Positions 3,929-56,922 of a DNA stretch of 64,000 nt are shown in pieces. A program made the translations under genes and the position numbers. The stretch lies in NCBI RefSeq assembly GCF_003790525.1, contig NZ_CP033635.1. One strand, 5' to 3'. Each line of letters opens with the position of its first letter. Positions within the stretch are counted from its first letter, which is position 1. This stretch comes from Escherichia coli (GTDB lineage: Bacteria; Pseudomonadota; Gammaproteobacteria; Enterobacterales; Enterobacteriaceae). The notes under the pieces were generated by a model. It was not told the origin of the DNA and ran no database searches. It worked only from the letters and a program-made list of their open reading frames with translations.

Positions 3929-4034
3929 ACCGGTATCCTGTTGATTTCGCTGAACCGGATCACACTAATCCGGTTTATCATTCAGGTAATATGGACGTGA
4001 AAAAATCTGGAGTGACAAAGTGTGGAGGGAAGAG

Positions 4035-5009
4035 ATGACGGCACAACAAAGTGATGCGCTGCGTGAGATTGCTAATAAAGCCAGAGTTACCACCATTCTT
4101 CAGAGTAAGGCCTGGAAAGATACCCAGCGAATACTGAAGCGCAGCGGACTTGTGTGCAGAGAACGATCAGAGCCGTTTGATCCGGAGAAACATTTTGACT
4201 GTTATACGGTGCGTTATCTGTACCTGCTTAACATAATAGCACTTGAGCTAAGGCCAGATACAAGGCCAGATACACGGATTAAGGTTGAGGTGGGCCACTG
4301 GTATCGTATGACGGGTAAACGTTTATCACTTAATGTCCCGCCTTTTATGCTGATTCCGCGTAATATCCGGAGAAAAGTGGATGGATTCAGGCAATCAGAA
4401 GGTAAAACAACAAAAAAACCGACTCAACCGTTCACGGGCAGTTTGTATGAGGTTTTGAGCGGGGATATTGATTCGGCTAAGCTGGACGCATGGATTGCTG
4501 GACTACCTCTGAGTGCGCTGGAGGGAGCGAAGGAAATCCCAATCATGGGATTTAGTCCATGGGTTGTAGCCAAATCTGTTCGTCAGTCTGCATCCCCGAC
4601 GTTTGAACTTTTTTATCAGGAGTATCAGTCCCTGGTATTAAAATCTGTTTTTAAACTGGAACCGGGATTTGAACAACTTTTAACAAGACTAAGCTTTATA
4701 AAACAATCAATCCTCAGCAAACAACAATACAGGGTTAAATCGCAGTTACTGGAGAGACTGGGGAATGTGTTGTTTTTCACGTTGCTTTATAACCAGGGAT
4801 GTCCGGGAGAGTTTATAAATACACTTGTGGAAAAGGAGGACATTTATCTGAAAGCGTCCCCCGGGGAAGAAAAGGTGAAAGCACACCAGAAGCTGATTAA
4901 CTACATTGAAGAGTTCTGCAACGAAATGACGGAAAAGTACCTGATGCCTGCAGCCGGGAGACACTACAAAAAGAGGAAAACTGCCAGGAGTGGAAGTAGT
5001 GAAAGTTAA
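4035..5009 (+). CDS. hypothetical protein (324 aa from ATG 4035), no recognisable domain
   Basis: Long uninterrupted ORF (track 4020..5009). ATG 4035 follows GGAGGG at 4024-4029. Divergent from the GTPase operon. Contains a 12-bp tandem repeat (aaggccagatac x2) encoding RPDTRPDT. Confidence 0.6.
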   Translation: MTAQQSDALREIANKARVTTILQSKAWKDTQRILKRSGLVCRERSEPFDPEKHFDCYTVRYLYLLNIIALELRPDTRPDTRIKVEVGHWYRMTGKRLSLNVPPFMLIPRNIRRKVDGFRQSEGKTTKKPTQPFTGSLYEVLSGDIDSAKLDAWIAGLPLSALEGAKEIPIMGFSPWVVAKSVRQSASPTFELFYQEYQSLVLKSVFKLEPGFEQLLTRLSFIKQSILSKQQYRVKSQLLERLGNVLFFTLLYNQGCPGEFINTLVEKEDIYLKASPGEEKVKAHQKLINYIEEFCNEMTEKYLMPAAGRHYKKRKTARSGSSES

Positions 5010-5797
5010 TCCAGTCTACCGTTCAGAATCAGTTGTTCCAGAATAGCCTGCTGTGTTGTTTTCCTCGCTCTGGTCAGTCTGTCCAGAGCGCTTTTTGCGG
5101 ACGGTGATATCTTTACGTTAATTTGTACCCGTTTATCTTTTTTCCCGTCGATAAACTGTTTTCTGAAAGCGTCGTGCATTCTTCTGTAAAAATGTTCTTC
5201 AGCGCAGATCCCGACATGAAACTCTTTGTCGTTGTACTGGCATGGTATATCTCCGGGATACAGTATTTTAAGCAATGCTAAGATGGCAATGCGTTTCTCT
5301 TCGTTATTGACGGGGCAAAACCAGGTTAAATGTGACTCGGGAATACGAATGTTAATATATTTCCATGCCCACTCGAGTTGTTCCGGATTTTTTTTAAGCC
5401 ATGTAGCCTGGTTTTTGTTCCCGATTTCCTTCCAGTTTTTATAGATGGCATCAACGAGATTTTTAGTAAAAGCTTCCGTTTCTATCTGTGCTACACTATC
5501 AATCCATCGCCTGATGATCTCCAGCCGAATCTCATGGGTTGAGGATGACAGCTTACTGATGCAAACAGATTCTTCAGAAGTGGGAAGTTGCATGGTAAGT
5601 TCATAGTAACTGCTCCCTGACACTTTCATATCCTTTATCACCAGACAAAACCAGAATGCTGCAACTTTATCCTTAAGCCATTCAGGTAAATGCCTATCCT
5701 GCACATGACGCGATTTTAACGAATTCAGATTTTCTCCATTTTTCGATAAAAATTGATTCTGTTTATCTCGCCCCTGATCGTTAATCCGTAATGTCAT
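5006..5797 (-). CDS. hypothetical protein (263 aa) with C-terminal ribbon-helix-helix-like tail
   Basis: Track ORF 5006..5845. ATG 5797 follows AAGGAG. The C-terminus VQINVKISPSAKSALDRLTRARKTTQQAILEQLIL has a beta-strand/helix/helix pattern like CopG/Arc RHH. Its stop overlaps the stop of 4035..5009 within TTAA. Confidence 0.6.
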   Translation of the reverse strand: MTLRINDQGRDKQNQFLSKNGENLNSLKSRHVQDRHLPEWLKDKVAAFWFCLVIKDMKVSGSSYYELTMQLPTSEESVCISKLSSSTHEIRLEIIRRWIDSVAQIETEAFTKNLVDAIYKNWKEIGNKNQATWLKKNPEQLEWAWKYINIRIPESHLTWFCPVNNEEKRIAILALLKILYPGDIPCQYNDKEFHVGICAEEHFYRRMHDAFRKQFIDGKKDKRVQINVKISPSAKSALDRLTRARKTTQQAILEQLILNGRLD

Positions 5798-6430
5798 CTG
5801 TTTTCTCCTTCTTTCCGGGTTATCTGTTATTAAACCCCATATCAATAAAACGAGTGCAATGCAATAAAATTTACAAATAAAAGCATTTTGTGTTCACAGA
5901 ACGATTATTCACCAGTTATTAATGCAATAAAATATTCCTGAACTATTCCTTGATTAGGAAAAACATGCTATCAACTATGGTTCATGTGCCCCTTGTGGAG
6001 GGCGTTTTGCCGTTCGGCTGTTCTTGTGGTCAGATTAACAATCTGAAGAGTAAAGACGACAGTAATCTGTCTGTTATAGTGGCGATAAAAACACTGAATG
6101 TGCATCCTGTATGTGAAATCCGGTCATGTGGAGCAGTAAGCAATGACAGACATGCATGTTATATGTGAAGGGGGCCGGGAGACGACATAATCAGTATGGC
6201 TGTCATTCTGGTTGTAAAACGCGATCACTTTCCGGGGGTAAAAGATGATATGGAGGCTGACAAACGGTTTGCTTCGGATTGTCTTTTCTGGGGCCTGAAA
6301 TACGGGGGCAGAAAAATAATTCCAGAGTAAATCTGCTCTGTTTTTAGGACAGAAAACTCCATGCTGGCTGTAAAAGTGAGAAATCAACACCCAGTATGTA
6401 TGGAAGTCTGAAGATGTTGAGAATGTCGGT

Positions 6431-6622
6431 ATGATACTATATACACATGTTTTTATTAAGTGTTATATACATATCTTTTTAAATAGATAATTCTACACAT
6501 ATTTTACTAAGTATTTTTACTAAGCATTTCAGTAAGTGTTATACACGTATTTTCTACTAAGTGTTTTACCAGACATACACGTGTTTTCATAAACAGCCCT
6601 ATAAGTGTTTTCATTAAGCATT
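6431..6622. repeat. iteron-like array: four ~22-35 bp units ATACAC(A/G)T..TTTT..A(C/T)TAAGT(G/A)TT plus extra TAAG(C/T)(A/G)TT half-sites
   Basis: Units read at 6431-6454, 6494-6516, 6541-6565 and 6575-6609. Half-sites at 6521-6528, 6533-6540 and 6615-6622. Confidence 0.6.
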
Positions 6623-7522
6623 GCTGTACACATTGCTTTGTCTGAAACTCATCCAGTTTAGTAAATCTTTACGTTAGCTAAAATCAGTTTAAAGCTGCTG
6701 TAAAACCTTTCTGTTTAAGCAATCAATCTGCTATTCGATTTTACTGATGTTGCGTTTAACCTTTTCTGAGATTTCGAGTTTCGACGTTAGCATGAGAAAA
6801 GTATCTTTACGCTAAATCAACCCGAACTTTCCTGAAGTAATCTGACGTTTTTTTCGATGTGCTTTCGACGATTCTGTTAAACGACTTTCTGGATGTTTTG
6901 ATAACAATCAGATTGAGGCATTAACGATTCCTGACGTTTTGCTTTTTCATGTAAGGTCATTGTTTTCGTCATGATGTGATTTTTCTTCTTGCATTGCGAA
7001 AGTGTGATGATTGGTTTTGGTTTTTTGATTCAGATGAGATTTACGTTATCGATGGTTAATCGTTTTTATGGTGCGTAGTGAAATGTAACATTTTCGGGAT
7101 GAGAAAATCGATTCTGATGGTGATGGGGATGATCGTGTTACGGCGTTATCTGTAAACAGGTTTTAAACGTGTCATTCGCATTCGTGATTGAGTAATGTGG
7201 TTAAGCTGTAGGTTTTGGTGTTGTTGTTGATTCACAGCGCCAGAAAGTGCTCTGATTGCGTTTCTGGTGTTTTGTTCGAATGTTCTGTGGATCCTTTTCC
7301 CTTCTGACTTTTCTCGTTGTCCATGTCGTTTTTAAATCCATTCGCTGTTCTTGAGTGTTTTTACCCTGCGTGTAGAATTATCTTTTCGTTCCGGGATGGT
7401 TTGTTCCGTTTCAATCACTCTTAATCAGAGAGTTGTAGCATTGCTCAATGCCGGATGCCGTAAAGTTTTACCGCAGTGATTAATGATGTGAAGTCAATCC
7501 AAATCAACGGAGATCTCTCATC

Positions 7523-8254
7523 ATGAATCAACCAATACACAATGCTTACTGGTTATCCCGTTTTGACAGCCTTCTCAACAGTGCCCTGGCGCAACACCGT
7601 GCCGTTTCGTTAATCCGGGTGGATTTACGTTTTCCTGAGTATATGCCTGCCACCATTATGGATACCGATTTAGATTCAGCGGTGATTTCTCGTTTTTTCG
7701 AATCCCTGAAAGCCAAAATCCAGGCTTACCAGCGGAAAAAACGACGTGCCAACAAGCGTGTGCGTGCAACCACCCTGCATTATTTCTGGTGTCGGGAGTT
7801 TGGCAAGGAAAAAGGCAGGAAACATTATCACGTGATATTACTGCTCAACAAAGATACCTGGTGCTCGCCAGGGGATTTCACCGTTCCTTCTTCGCTGGCG
7901 ACACTGATCAAGCTGGCATGGTGTAGTGCTCTGCATCTTGAGCCCTGGCAGGGTAATGGACTGGTTCATTTTTCCAGGCGGACGCCTTTCCGTAAACCGA
8001 CATCATCTGATGCTCGCCCTTCTTCCGATGATACGCCTTTGTCGGGTGGATGTTCTGATACCAGGAAGGCTTCAGACAAAAAGCCGGGTGAAGCCGCTGT
8101 TCTCTGGATCAAGCGTGGTGATGTGGAAGCGCTGCAGAAAGCCCGGAACAGAGCCAGTTATCTCGTGAAATATGAGACGAAGCAGCATGACGGTTCCGGG
8201 CAACGTAATTATGGTTGCAGTCGTGGGCCGGGGCGTCTGCTGGATGGCAGGTGA
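7523..8254 (+). CDS. YfjJ/YagK (inovirus Gp2-type) family protein, paralogue 1
   Basis: 243-aa ORF. The N-terminal VSLIRVDLRFPEY... and HYHVILLLN motifs are typical of this family. SD GGAGA lies 9 nt upstream. Confidence 0.75.
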   Translation: MNQPIHNAYWLSRFDSLLNSALAQHRAVSLIRVDLRFPEYMPATIMDTDLDSAVISRFFESLKAKIQAYQRKKRRANKRVRATTLHYFWCREFGKEKGRKHYHVILLLNKDTWCSPGDFTVPSSLATLIKLAWCSALHLEPWQGNGLVHFSRRTPFRKPTSSDARPSSDDTPLSGGCSDTRKASDKKPGEAAVLWIKRGDVEALQKARNRASYLVKYETKQHDGSGQRNYGCSRGPGRLLDGR

Positions 8255-8610
8255 GCCCTGTAAAACGACATCCGGTGCCTGAGCTTATGCTACAGGACGT
8301 TGGCTGACGCCCTTAGCTCGTTTTCTGAAAAAGTCGTCCTGAAGTCATGCAACGGTATTTTTCTCTGCTTTCGCTCCTGGAAACACTCCGTCGGTAAAAC
8401 CTTACTGTCCTGCTTAATGATGTGAACCGAAGTCAACGGAGAGCATTCATTCTGAACCTGCATCCGGTGTTCTGTCCCTTGTCGGTTACCTGATCTTCCC
8501 GTTCTGCCGCGGTTTTTCACTTATTCCATCAACCCCATACGCAAGCCATAACACGTCAGCGCATCCACGGGCAGGACGCGTTGTGGGCTGCGTATAACGG
8601 AACATATCTT

Positions 8611-9183
8611 ATGAATGCTATCCCTTATTTCGACTATAGCCTTGCCCCCTTCTGGCCATCTTATCAGAACAAAATCATCGGCGTTCTCAACCGTGTGTTG
8701 CGCGAGCAGTCCTGCTCCCGAATACGGCGGATCCTGCTTCGTCTGCCGGGGGAACATGGCAACATCTTCAGCGACAGAAAAACCTGGTTCGGTATGGCCT
8801 TTATCGAAACCGTCAGTGCGCTGATGAATGCAACCCCCGGACGCGACCTCTGCTGGCTCCTGACACGTCATCCTGAAAAACCGGAATACCACGTGGTGCT
8901 GTGCGTCAGACAGGAATATTTCGACGGCCCTGAGCTGGACCGGTTGATTCTGGATGCCTGGAGCAACGTACTGGGCTTCGCGTCACCGGGTGAAGCAGCA
9001 CCGTACCAGAAACAGATAACCCGGGATGTGGTGCTGGACAGTTGTTCACCGGACTGCGAAGAGAGACTCAAAGAGCTGATATGGGCGTTCAGTGATTTCG
9101 CCCGCGATCGTCGTGGTGTGCGCGATCCGGAAGCCCGTTACCTCGCCGGTAATCCCTGGTATCCCGTAGCAGGCCAGCTCTGA
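8611..9183 (+). CDS. YfjJ/YagK family protein, paralogue 2
   Basis: Track ORF 8581..9183; ATG 8611 gives MNAIPYFDY... Contains RRILLRLPGEHG and YHVVLCV, the same block order as paralogue 1. Confidence 0.68.
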   Translation: MNAIPYFDYSLAPFWPSYQNKIIGVLNRVLREQSCSRIRRILLRLPGEHGNIFSDRKTWFGMAFIETVSALMNATPGRDLCWLLTRHPEKPEYHVVLCVRQEYFDGPELDRLILDAWSNVLGFASPGEAAPYQKQITRDVVLDSCSPDCEERLKELIWAFSDFARDRRGVRDPEARYLAGNPWYPVAGQL

Positions 9184-9251: not shown

Positions 9252-9488
9252 ATGTTGACCTCAATGACAGGTCACGACAGCGTATTGCTGCGTGCCGACG
9301 ATCCCCTGATCGACATGAACTACATCACCAGCTTCACTGGTATGACCGACAAATGGTTTTACAAGCTGATCAGTGAAGGCCATTTCCCTAAACCCATCAA
9401 ACTGGGGCGCAGCAGCCGCTGGTACAAAAGTGAAGTGGAGCAGTGGATGCAGCAACGAATCGAGGCATCACGAGGGGCAGCAGCATGA
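9252..9488 (+). CDS. AlpA-family phage/island transcriptional regulator
   Basis: 78 aa. GMTDKWFYKLISEGHFPKPIKLGRSSRWYKSEVEQW is the classic AlpA/MerR-like HTH signature. Confidence 0.85.
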   Translation: MLTSMTGHDSVLLRADDPLIDMNYITSFTGMTDKWFYKLISEGHFPKPIKLGRSSRWYKSEVEQWMQQRIEASRGAAA

Positions 9489-26695: not shown

Positions 26696-27586
26696 TCAGG
26701 CTGCCAGATCATCGTTTCCGATGGAAGCATAATAAGCTTTTTCTGCTTCTGCCGGTGGGATATGGCCCAGCCTTTCCAGCAATCGTCGATTGTTATACCA
26801 GTCCACCCACGTGAGTGTGGCCAGCTCCACTTCTGTCCGGTTTTTCCAGCTCTTACGGTGTATTACCTCCGCTTTGTAAAGGCCATTGATGCTCTCCGCC
26901 ATCGCGTTGTCATACGAGTCACCAGTACTTCCTGTTGATGCCAGTAATCCGGCTTCCTTAAGCCGCTGTGTGTAGGCCAGCGATACATACTGAGAACCTT
27001 TATCACTGTGATGGACTGTGCCGGACGGTCGACGGGCCCATAACGCCTGCTCCAGAGCATCCAGCACGAATGTCGTTTCCATAGACGATGAGACCCGCCA
27101 CCCCACGATGTATCCGGCAAACACATCAATGATGAACGCCACATAGACGACCCCCTCCCATGTGCTGACGTAAGTAAAATCAGCCACCCACAACTGGTCA
27201 GGACGTTCTGCCACAAACTGACGGTTTACGCGGTCGCCTGCGGCAACGGCTTTCCGGCTGACGGTAGTGCGGACCTTTTTACCCCGGAGAACACCGGCAA
27301 GTCCCATAACCGCCATGAGGCGCGCCACTGTACATCTGGCTACCCTGATTCCTTCCCGTAACAACTGACGCCAGACTTTACGCACACCGTATACCTGATG
27401 ATTCCCATCGTATACGCGCAGTATCTCTTTCTTCAGCCAGTCATCGCGCTGCGCACGGGCACTGCGTTTATAAGGATGATGTCGCTGTTGCTGACAGTGG
27501 TAATACGTTGACGGGGCAATATGTAGTTCACTGCATACCGGTCCGACCCCGTACAGCTTACGCAGCTTATCCAGCAGTGGCATCAC
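26696..27586 (-). CDS. IS3-family transposase orfB (DDE integrase core)
   Basis: 296-aa frame with [19 protein letters not shown] and [10 protein letters not shown] motifs. Confidence 0.9.
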
Positions 27587-27909
27587 TTTTTCCAGAGGCG
27601 GTCGAACTCCGCCTTCGCAAAATAAGCGGAAGCCTGGCGAAGGATATCGTTACTGCGGCGCAGTTCACGATTTTCACGTTCCAGCTCTTTCAGACGCTGA
27701 CGTTCAGCGGTGGTGAGCCCGCCATCACCGCCTCCGGTATCCCGCTCATGCTGGCGTACCCAGACACGCAGAGTCTCCGGTGTACAGCCAATCTTTGGGG
27801 CAATGGAACAAATTGCCGCCCACTGTGAGTCATATTCGCCCTGACTTTCCAGAACCATACGAATCGCCCTCTGACGGACTTCGGGGGAAAAACGAGTATT
27901 TTTAGTCAT
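27583..27909 (-). CDS. IS3-family transposase orfA
   Basis: 108 aa, [26 protein letters not shown]..., HTH plus leucine zipper. Confidence 0.9.

Positions 27910-55407: not shown

Positions 55408-56922
<1,515 letters not shown>

Follow-up and report, generated by a model that had tools for sequence, protein, structure and literature searches.

We find that a gene-free stretch upstream of a yfjJ-type gene in a CP4-type island of Escherichia coli is probably a protein landing site, acting as a switch, as a replication origin or as both, a reading that we draw from the sequence because a direct-repeat array there adjoins two short boxes kept from E. coli to the Betaproteobacteria. The core of this candidate landing site occupies positions 6315-6633 of the 64-kb stretch of DNA that was analysed (the window). 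With moderate confidence, we interpret it as a conserved cis-acting control module of islands that carry a Gp2-like (YfjJ) and an AlpA-like gene, which would hold binding sites for an island protein, form the yfjJ-alpA switch and possibly include a Rep origin. A first-pass annotation of this DNA had suggested a protein-binding origin or a regulatory landing pad, and for this sequence that still appears to be the best class of explanation, since the array is real, adjoins an HUH-type gene and recurs there in distant islands. The module of about 320 bp directly upstream of yfjJ, conserved across genera, offers a concrete DNA substrate, and the succession of box 1, about 90 bp and box 2 is a sequence signature by which the control end of these islands can be located in genomes. 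The features discussed below are listed in Table 1.

Table 1 Features of the gene-free stretch and its neighbouring genes (positions in the window)
Feature	Position	Strand	Remarks
Variable left part	5846-6314	none	Restricted to islands that have the same cargo genes on the left
Box 1, AATAATTCCAGAGT (family consensus RATAAYTCCAGAGT)	6315-6328	+	Kept upstream of YfjJ-type genes in other genera
Terminator-like hairpin, CAGAGTAAATCTGCTCTG and T run	6323-6345	called on both	Overlaps box 1
Conserved block, GTCTGAAGATGTTGAGAATGTCGGTATGATACTAT, holding box 2 (6426-6440)	6406-6440	+	Near-invariant among 38 unique E. coli versions
Direct-repeat array, TACACRT half-sites and TTTnAnTAAGYRTT units	6441-6633	+	Among the longest versions seen
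T/G-rich gene-free tract, candidate leader or spacer	6634-7374	+	No coding or RNA-structure signal
Proximal conserved region	7375-7522	+	Palindrome GTAAAGTTTTAC (7460-7471); Shine-Dalgarno GGAG (7509-7512)
YfjJ-type gene (YfjJ-1, inovirus Gp2 family)	7523-8254	+	HUH motif HYHV, residues 101-104; conserved Tyr in RAsYLvKyeTK
AlpA-like excisionase-family gene	9252-9488	+	Pfam Phage_AlpA, 2e-10; downstream of yfjJ, same orientation

Island context and distribution

At every locus examined, the region lies between a GTPase/DUF932/antirestriction module (or inserted cargo) and the YfjJ-type gene, which is followed in these islands by the AlpA-like gene. The region is single-copy within the window. 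Of 5426 complete E. coli genomes, 1878 carry it (median 2 copies), and a stretch of about 1 kb is found at a coverage of at least 80% in more than 1300 E. coli genomes, a distribution that removes the concern, raised in the first-pass annotation, that the region might not be conserved between related islands. About one third of complete E. coli genomes therefore carry the region, often in several copies, in islands with virulence, toxin-antitoxin and anti-phage cargo. EHEC 86-24 is one carrier, with a copy of 90% identity; E. coli copies total about 3,300, and homologous loci number at least 948. Islands whose YfjJ proteins are only 35-45% identical have the module of box 1, box 2 and array in common. 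In an alignment of 11 loci, by comparison, lineages with another left neighbour (L006 and L008-L011) are unrelated to the E. coli sequence until about 6320. The E. coli islands are degraded, with no integrase near the region and with frequent IS elements and pseudogenes; the module persists in them.

Several candidate references and relatives were discarded. In the CP4-57 island of K-12, the region has no homologue, box 1 is missing and AlpA shows only 25% identity. The 31.7-kb record CP088396, considered as a plasmid form of the excised island, is an IncF fragment and not an island circle, and the idea that the region mimics the cos or pac site of a helper phage found no match among 50,697 phage records. 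Plasmid matches consist of island copies on four E. coli plasmids, with no other oriT-like match; a sub-threshold NikA-like match (E 0.011) belongs to a 176-aa protein of variant B islands that is absent from this window.

Two conserved boxes and a lineage-specific repeat array

The exact 12-mer of box 1, ATAAYTCCAGAS, is found a single time in the window. Each locus of 8-12 kb likewise has one occurrence, upstream of the YfjJ gene and on its strand, in E. coli, Brenneria, Providencia, L109, L114 and L115, and forms with one mismatch are found in Salmonella, Herminiimonas and the Morganellaceae. Box 2 contains TGATACTAT (6432-6440), which resembles an extended -10 element; relatives carry GTCTGATTGGTAATAT instead, a 16-mer that is identical in Salmonella, L114 and L115, and TGnTAnnnT follows box 1 by 83-112 nt in five lineages. 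Both boxes and their spacing are kept from the Enterobacterales to the Betaproteobacteria, the distance from box 1 to box 2 being 108 nt in E. coli and 85-97 nt in distant lineages, although the sequence between them is unrelated among lineages. The module is absent from L118-L121.

The hairpin that overlaps box 1 is not kept in other genera and is thus probably specific to the E. coli lineage, and no conserved hairpin occurs at a common position of the module (DNA-fold z-scores of -1.7 to +1.9 in 8 lineages). In E. coli, Salmonella and L115 alike, a two-hexamer promoter scan left box 2 uncalled for lack of a -35 partner. Six-frame translation across genera ruled out a conserved small ORF ending at box 1.

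The repeats had been described in the first-pass annotation as four copies of one unit with three additional half-sites. A real array does occupy 6431-6633, but the supposed copy at 6575 reads TAAACA in place of TAAG, and the extra TAAGYRTT half-sites number four. The composite pattern TACACRT-N5-14-TAAGYRTT occurs three times in the window (6442, 6494 and 6542; 0.01 expected), always on the plus strand, and 7 of the window's 16 TAAGYRTT sites fall within 6457-6622, all of them on the plus strand. Tandem Repeats Finder (TRF) reports a 13-nt unit, TTTTACTAAGTAT, repeated 5.2 times at 6502-6567, a repeat search returned families D1-D3, D7 and D11, and the last TACACAT lies at 6627-6633. Spacing in the E. 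coli array is irregular (26, 26, 48, 34 and 51 nt), and among 30 unique E. coli versions array length ranges from 101 to 220 nt with differing copy number, the half-sites being retained.

Four independent lineages have an array that begins just past box 2, and the unit differs in each. Besides E. coli, these are L115 (4 copies of 14 nt, spaced by 22-24 nt), Providencia (3 copies of CTATGTGTTT) and Salmonella (an 8-nt unit, AGTATCTC, present 31 times in one strain and 22 times in another). The Morganellaceae (L110) and L114 possess the boxes, but a two-copy repeat or an inverted repeat replaces the array, and in Brenneria the repeats sit on the opposite side of box 1. By eye, the units of E. 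coli, Salmonella and L115 have an RGTRT core in common, which resembles CAGAGT of box 1. ACACAT was considered as a repeat of the whole family, being found in Brenneria and Providencia, and was abandoned in favour of boxes 1 and 2 as it is missing from the Morganellaceae and L114. Four one-mismatch matches to the DnaA box at 6439-6547 were likewise rejected as a DnaA-box cluster, given that none is perfect and that the motif differs in other lineages; we retain these look-alikes as a lead only.

A putative control module for the yfjJ-alpA operon

The first gene downstream of the array encodes a Rep-like protein. YfjJ-1 possesses HUH and Tyr motifs, and the closest matches to its predicted fold are the origin-binding nickase domains of parvovirus NS1 and AAV Rep, which bears out the earlier proposal that the flanking family is related to rolling-circle initiators. 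That three such genes are present is less certain: the gene at 7523-8254 has a clear HUH domain, while the family match of the one at 8581-9183 is no better than E=0.29 and the one at 9689-10237 has no Pfam match. Across genera, no protein of the module is as well conserved as the AlpA-like one, which has 67-70% identity between lineages where YfjJ has 35-43%, and a near-invariant helix-turn-helix. The AlpA antiterminator of P. aeruginosa, a different and larger protein, was set aside as an analogue.

From this arrangement we infer protein binding, promoter activity and nicking at the module. The repeats would be stacked sites for an island-encoded DNA-binding protein, most likely the HUH Rep-like YfjJ and alternatively the AlpA-like protein, and box 2 would be an extended -10-like sequence directed at yfjJ. 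Occupancy of the repeats would then set expression of the yfjJ-alpA operon, which would itself be the switch for island excision and replication. If the binder is the Rep protein, the repeats may also mark the melting or nicking site for rolling-circle copying of the excised island. The remaining 890 nt or so (6634-7522) would represent AT-rich leader or spacer sequence, expanded in the E. coli lineage. Several observations weigh against this control-module reading: changes in repeat copy number could reflect neutral slippage, the module has no conserved hairpin, unlike many HUH origins, box 2 is not called as a promoter, and arrays or the entire module are missing in some lineages. The antisense gene of variant B, together with divergence above that of yfjJ fourfold sites outside the anchors, also counts against it.

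A parallel for a switch is phage Pf4 (xisF4, pf4r and PA0727), which similarly pairs an excisionase-family protein with an inovirus Gp2-type initiator; there, the excisionase binds the initiator's promoter and turns it on, and proteins of the H-NS family keep the switch silent at an AT-rich control region (PMC7379572). In the E. coli island, by contrast, Rep precedes AlpA in one operon and structural phage genes are absent, and the text consulted describes no repeat array for Pf4 (PMC7379572).

A possible, if doubtful, alternative is that the module is purely a rolling-circle origin with no promoter role, box 2 (or box 1) being the nick site of YfjJ and the array its origin-binding repeats, such that the circle, once excised by AlpA and integrase, would be copied into concatemers destined for packaging or transfer. 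HUH origins in which repeats lie by a conserved nick motif include those of AAV (RBE and trs), MVM (ACCA repeats), geminiviruses (iterons and TAATATTAC) and pMV158 (dso bind and nic). The module resembles them in having an HUH Rep-like gene directly downstream and, as far as sequence layout goes, a short family-conserved box of 13-16 nt beside direct repeats that vary between lineages. The HUH motifs and predicted fold of YfjJ fit such an origin, as does the conservation of box 2, which exceeds the need of a -10 element (the GTCTGATTGGTAATAT 16-mer being identical in three lineages) and lacks a -35 partner. However, many, although not all, HUH origins present their nick site in a hairpin or cruciform, whereas there is no hairpin at box 1 or box 2. 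Moreover, a second conserved box lies about 90 bp off, the array is up to 1 kb from the rep gene, and the setting is a chromosomal island and not a virus or plasmid. The persistence of the module in degraded E. coli islands, and the absence of arrays from some lineages that keep YfjJ, also argue against a pure origin. The two readings are compatible rather than exclusive; in geminiviruses, the repeat sites of the origin double as the operator of the rep promoter.

Related islands of Pseudomonas are a precedent for the control module and lend some weight to an origin: those that combine a Gp2-like gene with AlpA and RadC are excised as circles or concatemers and act as phage satellites (PMC12595487). 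The tmRNA-integrated islands I23, I44 and I55 are similar to ours in their core of a Gp2-like gene followed by alpA, to which they add RadC and variable defence cargo, but they belong to another genus and integrase context, and PMC12595487 describes no non-coding module. It is conceivable, though we think it rather unlikely, that the module is the origin of a widespread class of islands or phage satellites, from CP4-type islands of Enterobacterales to those of Betaproteobacteria and Pseudomonas, in which YfjJ would bind the lineage-specific repeats and nick a conserved, non-hairpin box, rolling-circle copying of the excised island would yield concatemers for hijacked packaging, and the number of repeats would adjust copy number or incompatibility among the several islands that share a genome.

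Theta origins of the iteron type and Cox arrays of phage P2 offer another comparison, given that they too are runs of direct repeats, set in AT-rich sequence close to a gene for replication or regulation, and differ in copy number between relatives, and the 22-24 bp spacing of L115 is in keeping with them. We nevertheless rejected an iteron-type theta origin, as spacing is irregular in E. coli, no DnaA box is perfect, and the adjacent initiator is of HUH type and not a winged-helix protein of the RepA or pi type.

It is unlikely, in our view, that the repeats are instead an operator array for the AlpA-like protein, which would autoregulate the operon and/or bend the DNA with no involvement of Rep. 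Cox/Xis-type proteins polymerise on tandem direct repeats, P2 Cox binding runs of cox boxes, and the AlpA-like protein is the sole module protein conserved enough to match the near-invariant boxes. The similarity between the RGTRT core of the units and box 1 would also suit this reading, but a core of only 5 nt with two degenerate positions may be shared by chance in such AT-rich sequence. In Pf4, XisF4 binds at two promoters, its own and that of Rep (PMC7379572). Set against these points, the units otherwise differ between lineages while the helix-turn-helix of AlpA does not, and no att site adjoins the module, as would be expected for a binding array of a recombination directionality factor (RDF).

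We regard it as quite improbable that the stretch is mostly non-functional, that is, H-NS-silenced AT-rich filler between two divergent units with a slippage-prone minisatellite, of which only short promoter-proximal pieces matter. Sequence outside the anchors has indeed diverged beyond yfjJ fourfold sites and is a recombination mosaic, its length differs between genera, with a range of about 450 nt to 2.2 kb, its skew is not conserved and array copy number is free to change. Yet the boxes persist with their spacing from the Enterobacterales to the Betaproteobacteria, arrays with different units arose or persisted at the same spot in four lineages, and more than 1300 genomes still have the 1-kb stretch even though bacterial genomes are biased towards deletion.

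RNA gene and decayed gene readings

Two tempting readings of a long, ORF-poor stretch, namely a long structured non-coding RNA (or riboswitch-like leader) and a decayed coding gene, can be removed; we consider either highly improbable, and the sequence analyses do not support them. The G/U-rich plus strand does fold as a single sequence at -27 to -36 kcal/mol per 150 nt, and the first-pass annotation had raised a structured RNA as a possibility. Nonetheless, no relevant Rfam match was obtained at gathering thresholds across the whole window, or at E values up to 5 across 5600-7700, and RNAalifold, sliding on both strands of 17 representatives, gave structure conservation indices (SCI) of 0.0-0.54 without a covariation-driven consensus. 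The invariant last 125 nt reach an SCI of 0.58, yet offer almost no variation to test. Decayed coding sequence, which had been named as a finding that would overturn the functional proposal, is equally without support: substitutions have no 3-nt periodicity, indels do not come in multiples of 3, the 38 E. coli versions have no conserved ORF in common, and tblastn with the variant-B protein found no remnant.

The suggestion of a partition-like site also fails, for want of a partner of the ParA, ParM or TubZ type. The neighbouring GTPase matches MMR_HSR1/AIG1-type families and not ParA or tubulin-like proteins, and Pfam searches of the neighbouring genes revealed no ParB- or ParR-like gene.

The tract between the array and yfjJ

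The ORF list agrees with the earlier statements on coding content. No ORF of at least 60 aa lies in 6391-7522, where only two short ORFs are listed (46 aa, 7201-7341, minus strand; 42 aa, 7351-7479, plus strand), and 5846-6390 contains two, at 5950-6168 (plus strand, 72 aa, TTG start) and 6124-6390 (minus strand, 88 aa, GTG start), neither with a Pfam match, which we term mechanical ORFs.

The T/G richness described for the plus strand of 6660-7460 is likewise evident (A 21.6, C 16.1, G 22.2 and T 40.1%), with an AT skew of -0.17 to -0.53 and a GC skew of up to +0.49. A function of this tract in its own right finds no backing, as the skew is missing from the equivalent regions of distant relatives and conservation does not exceed that of fourfold sites. 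Recurring words had also been reported there, and three CG-containing words do occur twice each, above the expectation of a first-order Markov model: TTACGTTA (6669 and 7041), TGACGTTT (6843 and 6932) and TTTCGACG (6779 and 6863). This evidence is weak, because the patterns were picked after inspection.

Across the approximately 890 nt of 6634-7522, conservation is no better than at the fourfold sites of the adjoining yfjJ, and outside the anchors the gene-free region diverges more than those sites. The tract at 6634-7374 is a mosaic with 79-97% identity, and in variant B islands 7040-7375 is swapped for a cassette with the 176-aa gene on the minus strand. With this gene placed antisense between array and yfjJ, a simple 1.1-kb leader becomes less plausible and a second, proximal promoter more so. 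Judging from the alignments, only the last 60-150 nt of 6634-7522, a putative proximal regulatory and translation-start region, are visibly constrained. The final 60 nt or so (7460-7522) are near-invariant across all E. coli lineages, variant B included, and a similar layout, TTTWAC-N14-TRTGRA...GGAG, can be recognised by eye in L106, L107, L110, L115, L125 and L126.

Conservation of a box and array module upstream of yfjJ

Alignment of the equivalent regions from other islands, as the first-pass annotation had proposed, revealed that two short boxes and a repeat array recur across genera. YfjJ homologues of 35-45% identity occur in Brenneria, Providencia, Morganellaceae, Pectobacterium, Salmonella, Herminiimonas, Alcaligenes and two gut lineages (L114 and L115); in all of these distant islands an AlpA-like gene follows the homologue, while in most a GTPase/DUF932/antirestriction module or a ~320-aa gene lies upstream in divergent orientation, and the gene-free regions upstream of yfjJ measure 0.3-2.2 kb. 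Box 1 (RATAAYTCCAGAGT) is present as an exact 12-mer in five lineages, with a single copy at each locus on the same strand as yfjJ; forms with one mismatch occur in Salmonella (ATAACTCCGGAGT), Herminiimonas and Morganellaceae. Box 2 follows 85-97 nt downstream, the E. coli distance being 108 nt, although the sequence between the boxes is unrelated. It is identical in Salmonella, L114 and L115 (GTCTGATTGGTAATAT), whereas E. coli has GTCGGTATGATACTAT and Morganellaceae TTGGTATAGT. Directly after box 2, four lineages (E. coli, L115, Providencia and Salmonella) carry a direct-repeat array, the unit of which differs in each. A full array is not universal, as some lineages possess only two repeat copies or an inverted repeat at this point, and the module is missing from a few of the lineages compared.

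Features of the gene-free region, its flanks and related loci (window coordinates unless a locus is named)
Feature	Location	Strand	Description
Left flank	left of region	-	RadC, antirestriction protein, DUF932, GTPase, then two cargo genes
279-aa gene	5006-5845	-	left of region
Box 1	6315-6328
Box 2	6426-6440
Array, E. coli	6441-6633
Array, L115			four 14-nt units, spacing 22-24 nt
Array, Providencia			three CTATGTGTTT
Array, Salmonella			AGTATCTC x31 in one strain, x22 in another
Right flank	right of region	+	YfjJ/inovirus-Gp2-family gene (7523-8254), 200-aa ORF, AlpA-like gene (9252-9488), further ORF
ORF	8581-9183	+	YagK_YfjJ_C at E 0.29 only; one-His remnant EYHVVL
ORF	9689-10237	+	no Pfam match; RefSeq name 'YagK/YfjJ domain-containing'
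Variant B 176-aa gene	L009:4198-4728, L010:4148-4678, L011:4208-4738	-	annotated hypothetical or DNA-binding protein
ALIL pseudoknot	27512-27628	-	Rfam, 116 bits
Ysr276 (Yersinia sRNA 276)	55969-56163	-	Rfam, 183 bits

Within the window, the composite motif TACACRT-N5-14-TAAGYRTT bears out the iteron-like array noticed at first pass, with three occurrences in 64 kb (0.01 expected), all on the + strand at 6442-6565; seven of the 16 TAAGYRTT sites fall within 6457-6622, and TRF and a repeat finder recovered a 13-nt unit and several 24-27-nt families. Two boxes held at a fixed distance over a wide phylogenetic range, and arrays that reappear at one position although their units differ, argue for DNA-protein recognition as opposed to chance or filler. 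Judged from sequence, the first-pass suggestion of a protein-binding origin or regulatory landing pad is thus the class of explanation that finds support; a partition-like site, suggested alongside it, is unsupported.

Coding and RNA explanations

The reported ORF gap is real: a six-frame list contains only 46-aa and 42-aa ORFs in 6391-7522, and two weak ORFs, starting with TTG and GTG, in 5846-6390. Decayed coding sequence is contradicted by substitutions without 3-nt periodicity, indel lengths without bias to multiples of three, and the lack of any ORF common to 38 variant A versions (islands with the window-type region). The long structured RNA envisaged at first pass fares no better, given that an Rfam search of the region returned nothing and RNAalifold on 17 representatives gave structure conservation indices of 0.0-0.54 over both strands. 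Elsewhere in the window, Ysr276 and the ALIL pseudoknot, the frameshift element of IS3-family transposases, match Rfam at the gathering threshold; both are unconnected with the region. The + strand is indeed T/G-rich at 6660-7460 (T 40%, G 22%, A 22%, C 16%), and the CG-containing words described there exist, yet merely twice each. Equivalent regions in distant relatives are unskewed, and the tract is not a distinct feature but a spacer or leader that is lineage-specific.

Variation within E. coli

From metagenome contigs, an anchor search recovered 92 loci, which gave 38 unique variant A and 13 variant B versions. Among 30 distinct E. coli versions the array spans 101-220 nt, changing by gain or loss of whole units with half-sites retained, and 6406-6440, directly before it, is almost invariant. 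Between array and proximal end, the tract falls into eight lineages of 80-93% identity, and its conservation does not exceed that of fourfold-degenerate sites in the neighbouring gene; identity of tract and of fourfold sites is uncorrelated (in locus L006, for example, 79% versus 96%), which indicates recombination mosaics. The final ~60 nt before the yfjJ ATG (7460-7522) are nearly invariant in all E. coli lineages, exceeding coding sequence in conservation. Their layout, TTTWAC-N14-TRTGRA...GGAG, is common to E. coli and other genera; its spacing of 14 nt is wrong for a sigma-70 promoter. In variant B, ~1.1 kb replaces 7040-7375 and carries, antisense between array and yfjJ, a 176-aa gene with a sub-threshold Pfam match to NikA-like relaxosome accessory proteins (E 0.011), of which no remnant was found in the window. 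Both this antisense gene and the invariance of the 60-150 nt closest to yfjJ hint at a second promoter in the proximal part.

Possible functions of the module

Two mutually compatible readings fit these observations. Box 2 resembles an extended -10 element oriented towards yfjJ, and would then be part of a promoter with the repeats as operators, although no -35 partner was found and a generic promoter scan makes no call there. Alternatively, the module may be an origin for YfjJ as an HUH Rep-like protein, although neither box has a hairpin. A box shared throughout the family adjoins repeats that differ by lineage and a gene for an HUH Rep, an arrangement also seen in the origins of AAV/MVM, geminiviruses and pMV158. 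Across lineages, the AlpA-like protein keeps 67-70% identity and a nearly unchanged helix-turn-helix, against 35-43% for YfjJ and 34-37% for the GTPase. A diverged YfjJ would suit as binder of the lineage-specific repeats; for the invariant boxes, the AlpA-like protein, itself conserved, would be suitable, as would a host factor.

YfjJ-1 matches YagK_YfjJ_C (1.2e-36) and REP_ORF2-G2P (1.1e-9) in Pfam, and contains HYHVILLL followed by RAsYLvKyeTK, in the order of Rep proteins; both His and the first Tyr are kept among 21 homologues, the most diverged of which is 41% identical. Its AlphaFold model has a mean pLDDT of 76, aside from an E. coli-specific disordered insert (residues 153-189), and sequence comparison by itself brings up no relative in the PDB. 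The insert (window 7979-8089; ~45 residues, Ser/Pro/Asp/Lys-rich, pLDDT <50) is missing in all homologues of other genera, and several database entries are frameshifted exactly there. Of three YfjJ-type genes named at first pass, 7523-8254 stands, while 8581-9183 and 9689-10237 are at best remote paralogues.

A precedent comes from Pf4, in which a Gp2-type initiator whose catalytic Tyr has been identified (PMC4863604) is coupled to an excisionase under H-NS-type silencing (PMC7379572). Related Pseudomonas islands, which share the Gp2-like gene and AlpA with those of E. coli, are excised as circles or concatemers and act like phage satellites (PMC12595487). The non-coding module is described in none of the three papers; a repeat-containing control or origin region beside a Rep gene is a known kind of element, of which the present example is previously undescribed.

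Distribution and island context

The island family carrying the module is very common. The window is a CP4-type island of E. coli; of 5426 complete genomes of this species, 1878 contain its gene-free region, nearly always on the chromosome (median 2, maximum 8 places per genome); 6391-7522 is covered to at least 80% in 1348 E. coli genomes, at 68-97% identity. Every inspected locus has the GTPase side on one flank and a YfjJ-type gene on the other. Phage records gave no match, E. coli plasmids just four, and K-12 CP4-57 is without the region.

Cargo hotspots lie directly after alpA (loci L110-L113, L112, L115, L118) and between GTPase and gene-free region (window 4020-5845), holding, by lineage, genes for NACHT, KAP NTPase/QatB or TIR proteins, for type I or III restriction-modification systems or for restriction endonucleases, which suggests an anti-phage defence cargo site. 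The protein of the window's 279-aa gene is 28% identical (E 6e-18) to that of a 272-aa Salmonella gene (L126:987-1805, -), also left of its region, which has a weak RepB-RCR_reg Pfam match; the C-terminus of the former weakly matches ribbon-helix-helix and RepA-regulator families, and the gene may encode a module regulator that is conserved. In one E. coli genome, no sizeable gene is called over ~3.8 kb (L109:2214-6000) upstream of a 62%-identical YfjJ-type gene, with box 1 ~2.06 kb from its ATG, such that the region can exceed its length in the window. A 6.5-kb contig from a 'Bacillota bacterium' MAG (L003, JAEYLX010000008.1) carries the region (identity to the window ~79%) together with a YfjJ-type gene encoding a protein 88% identical to YfjJ-1, and is most likely mis-binned Enterobacteriaceae DNA.
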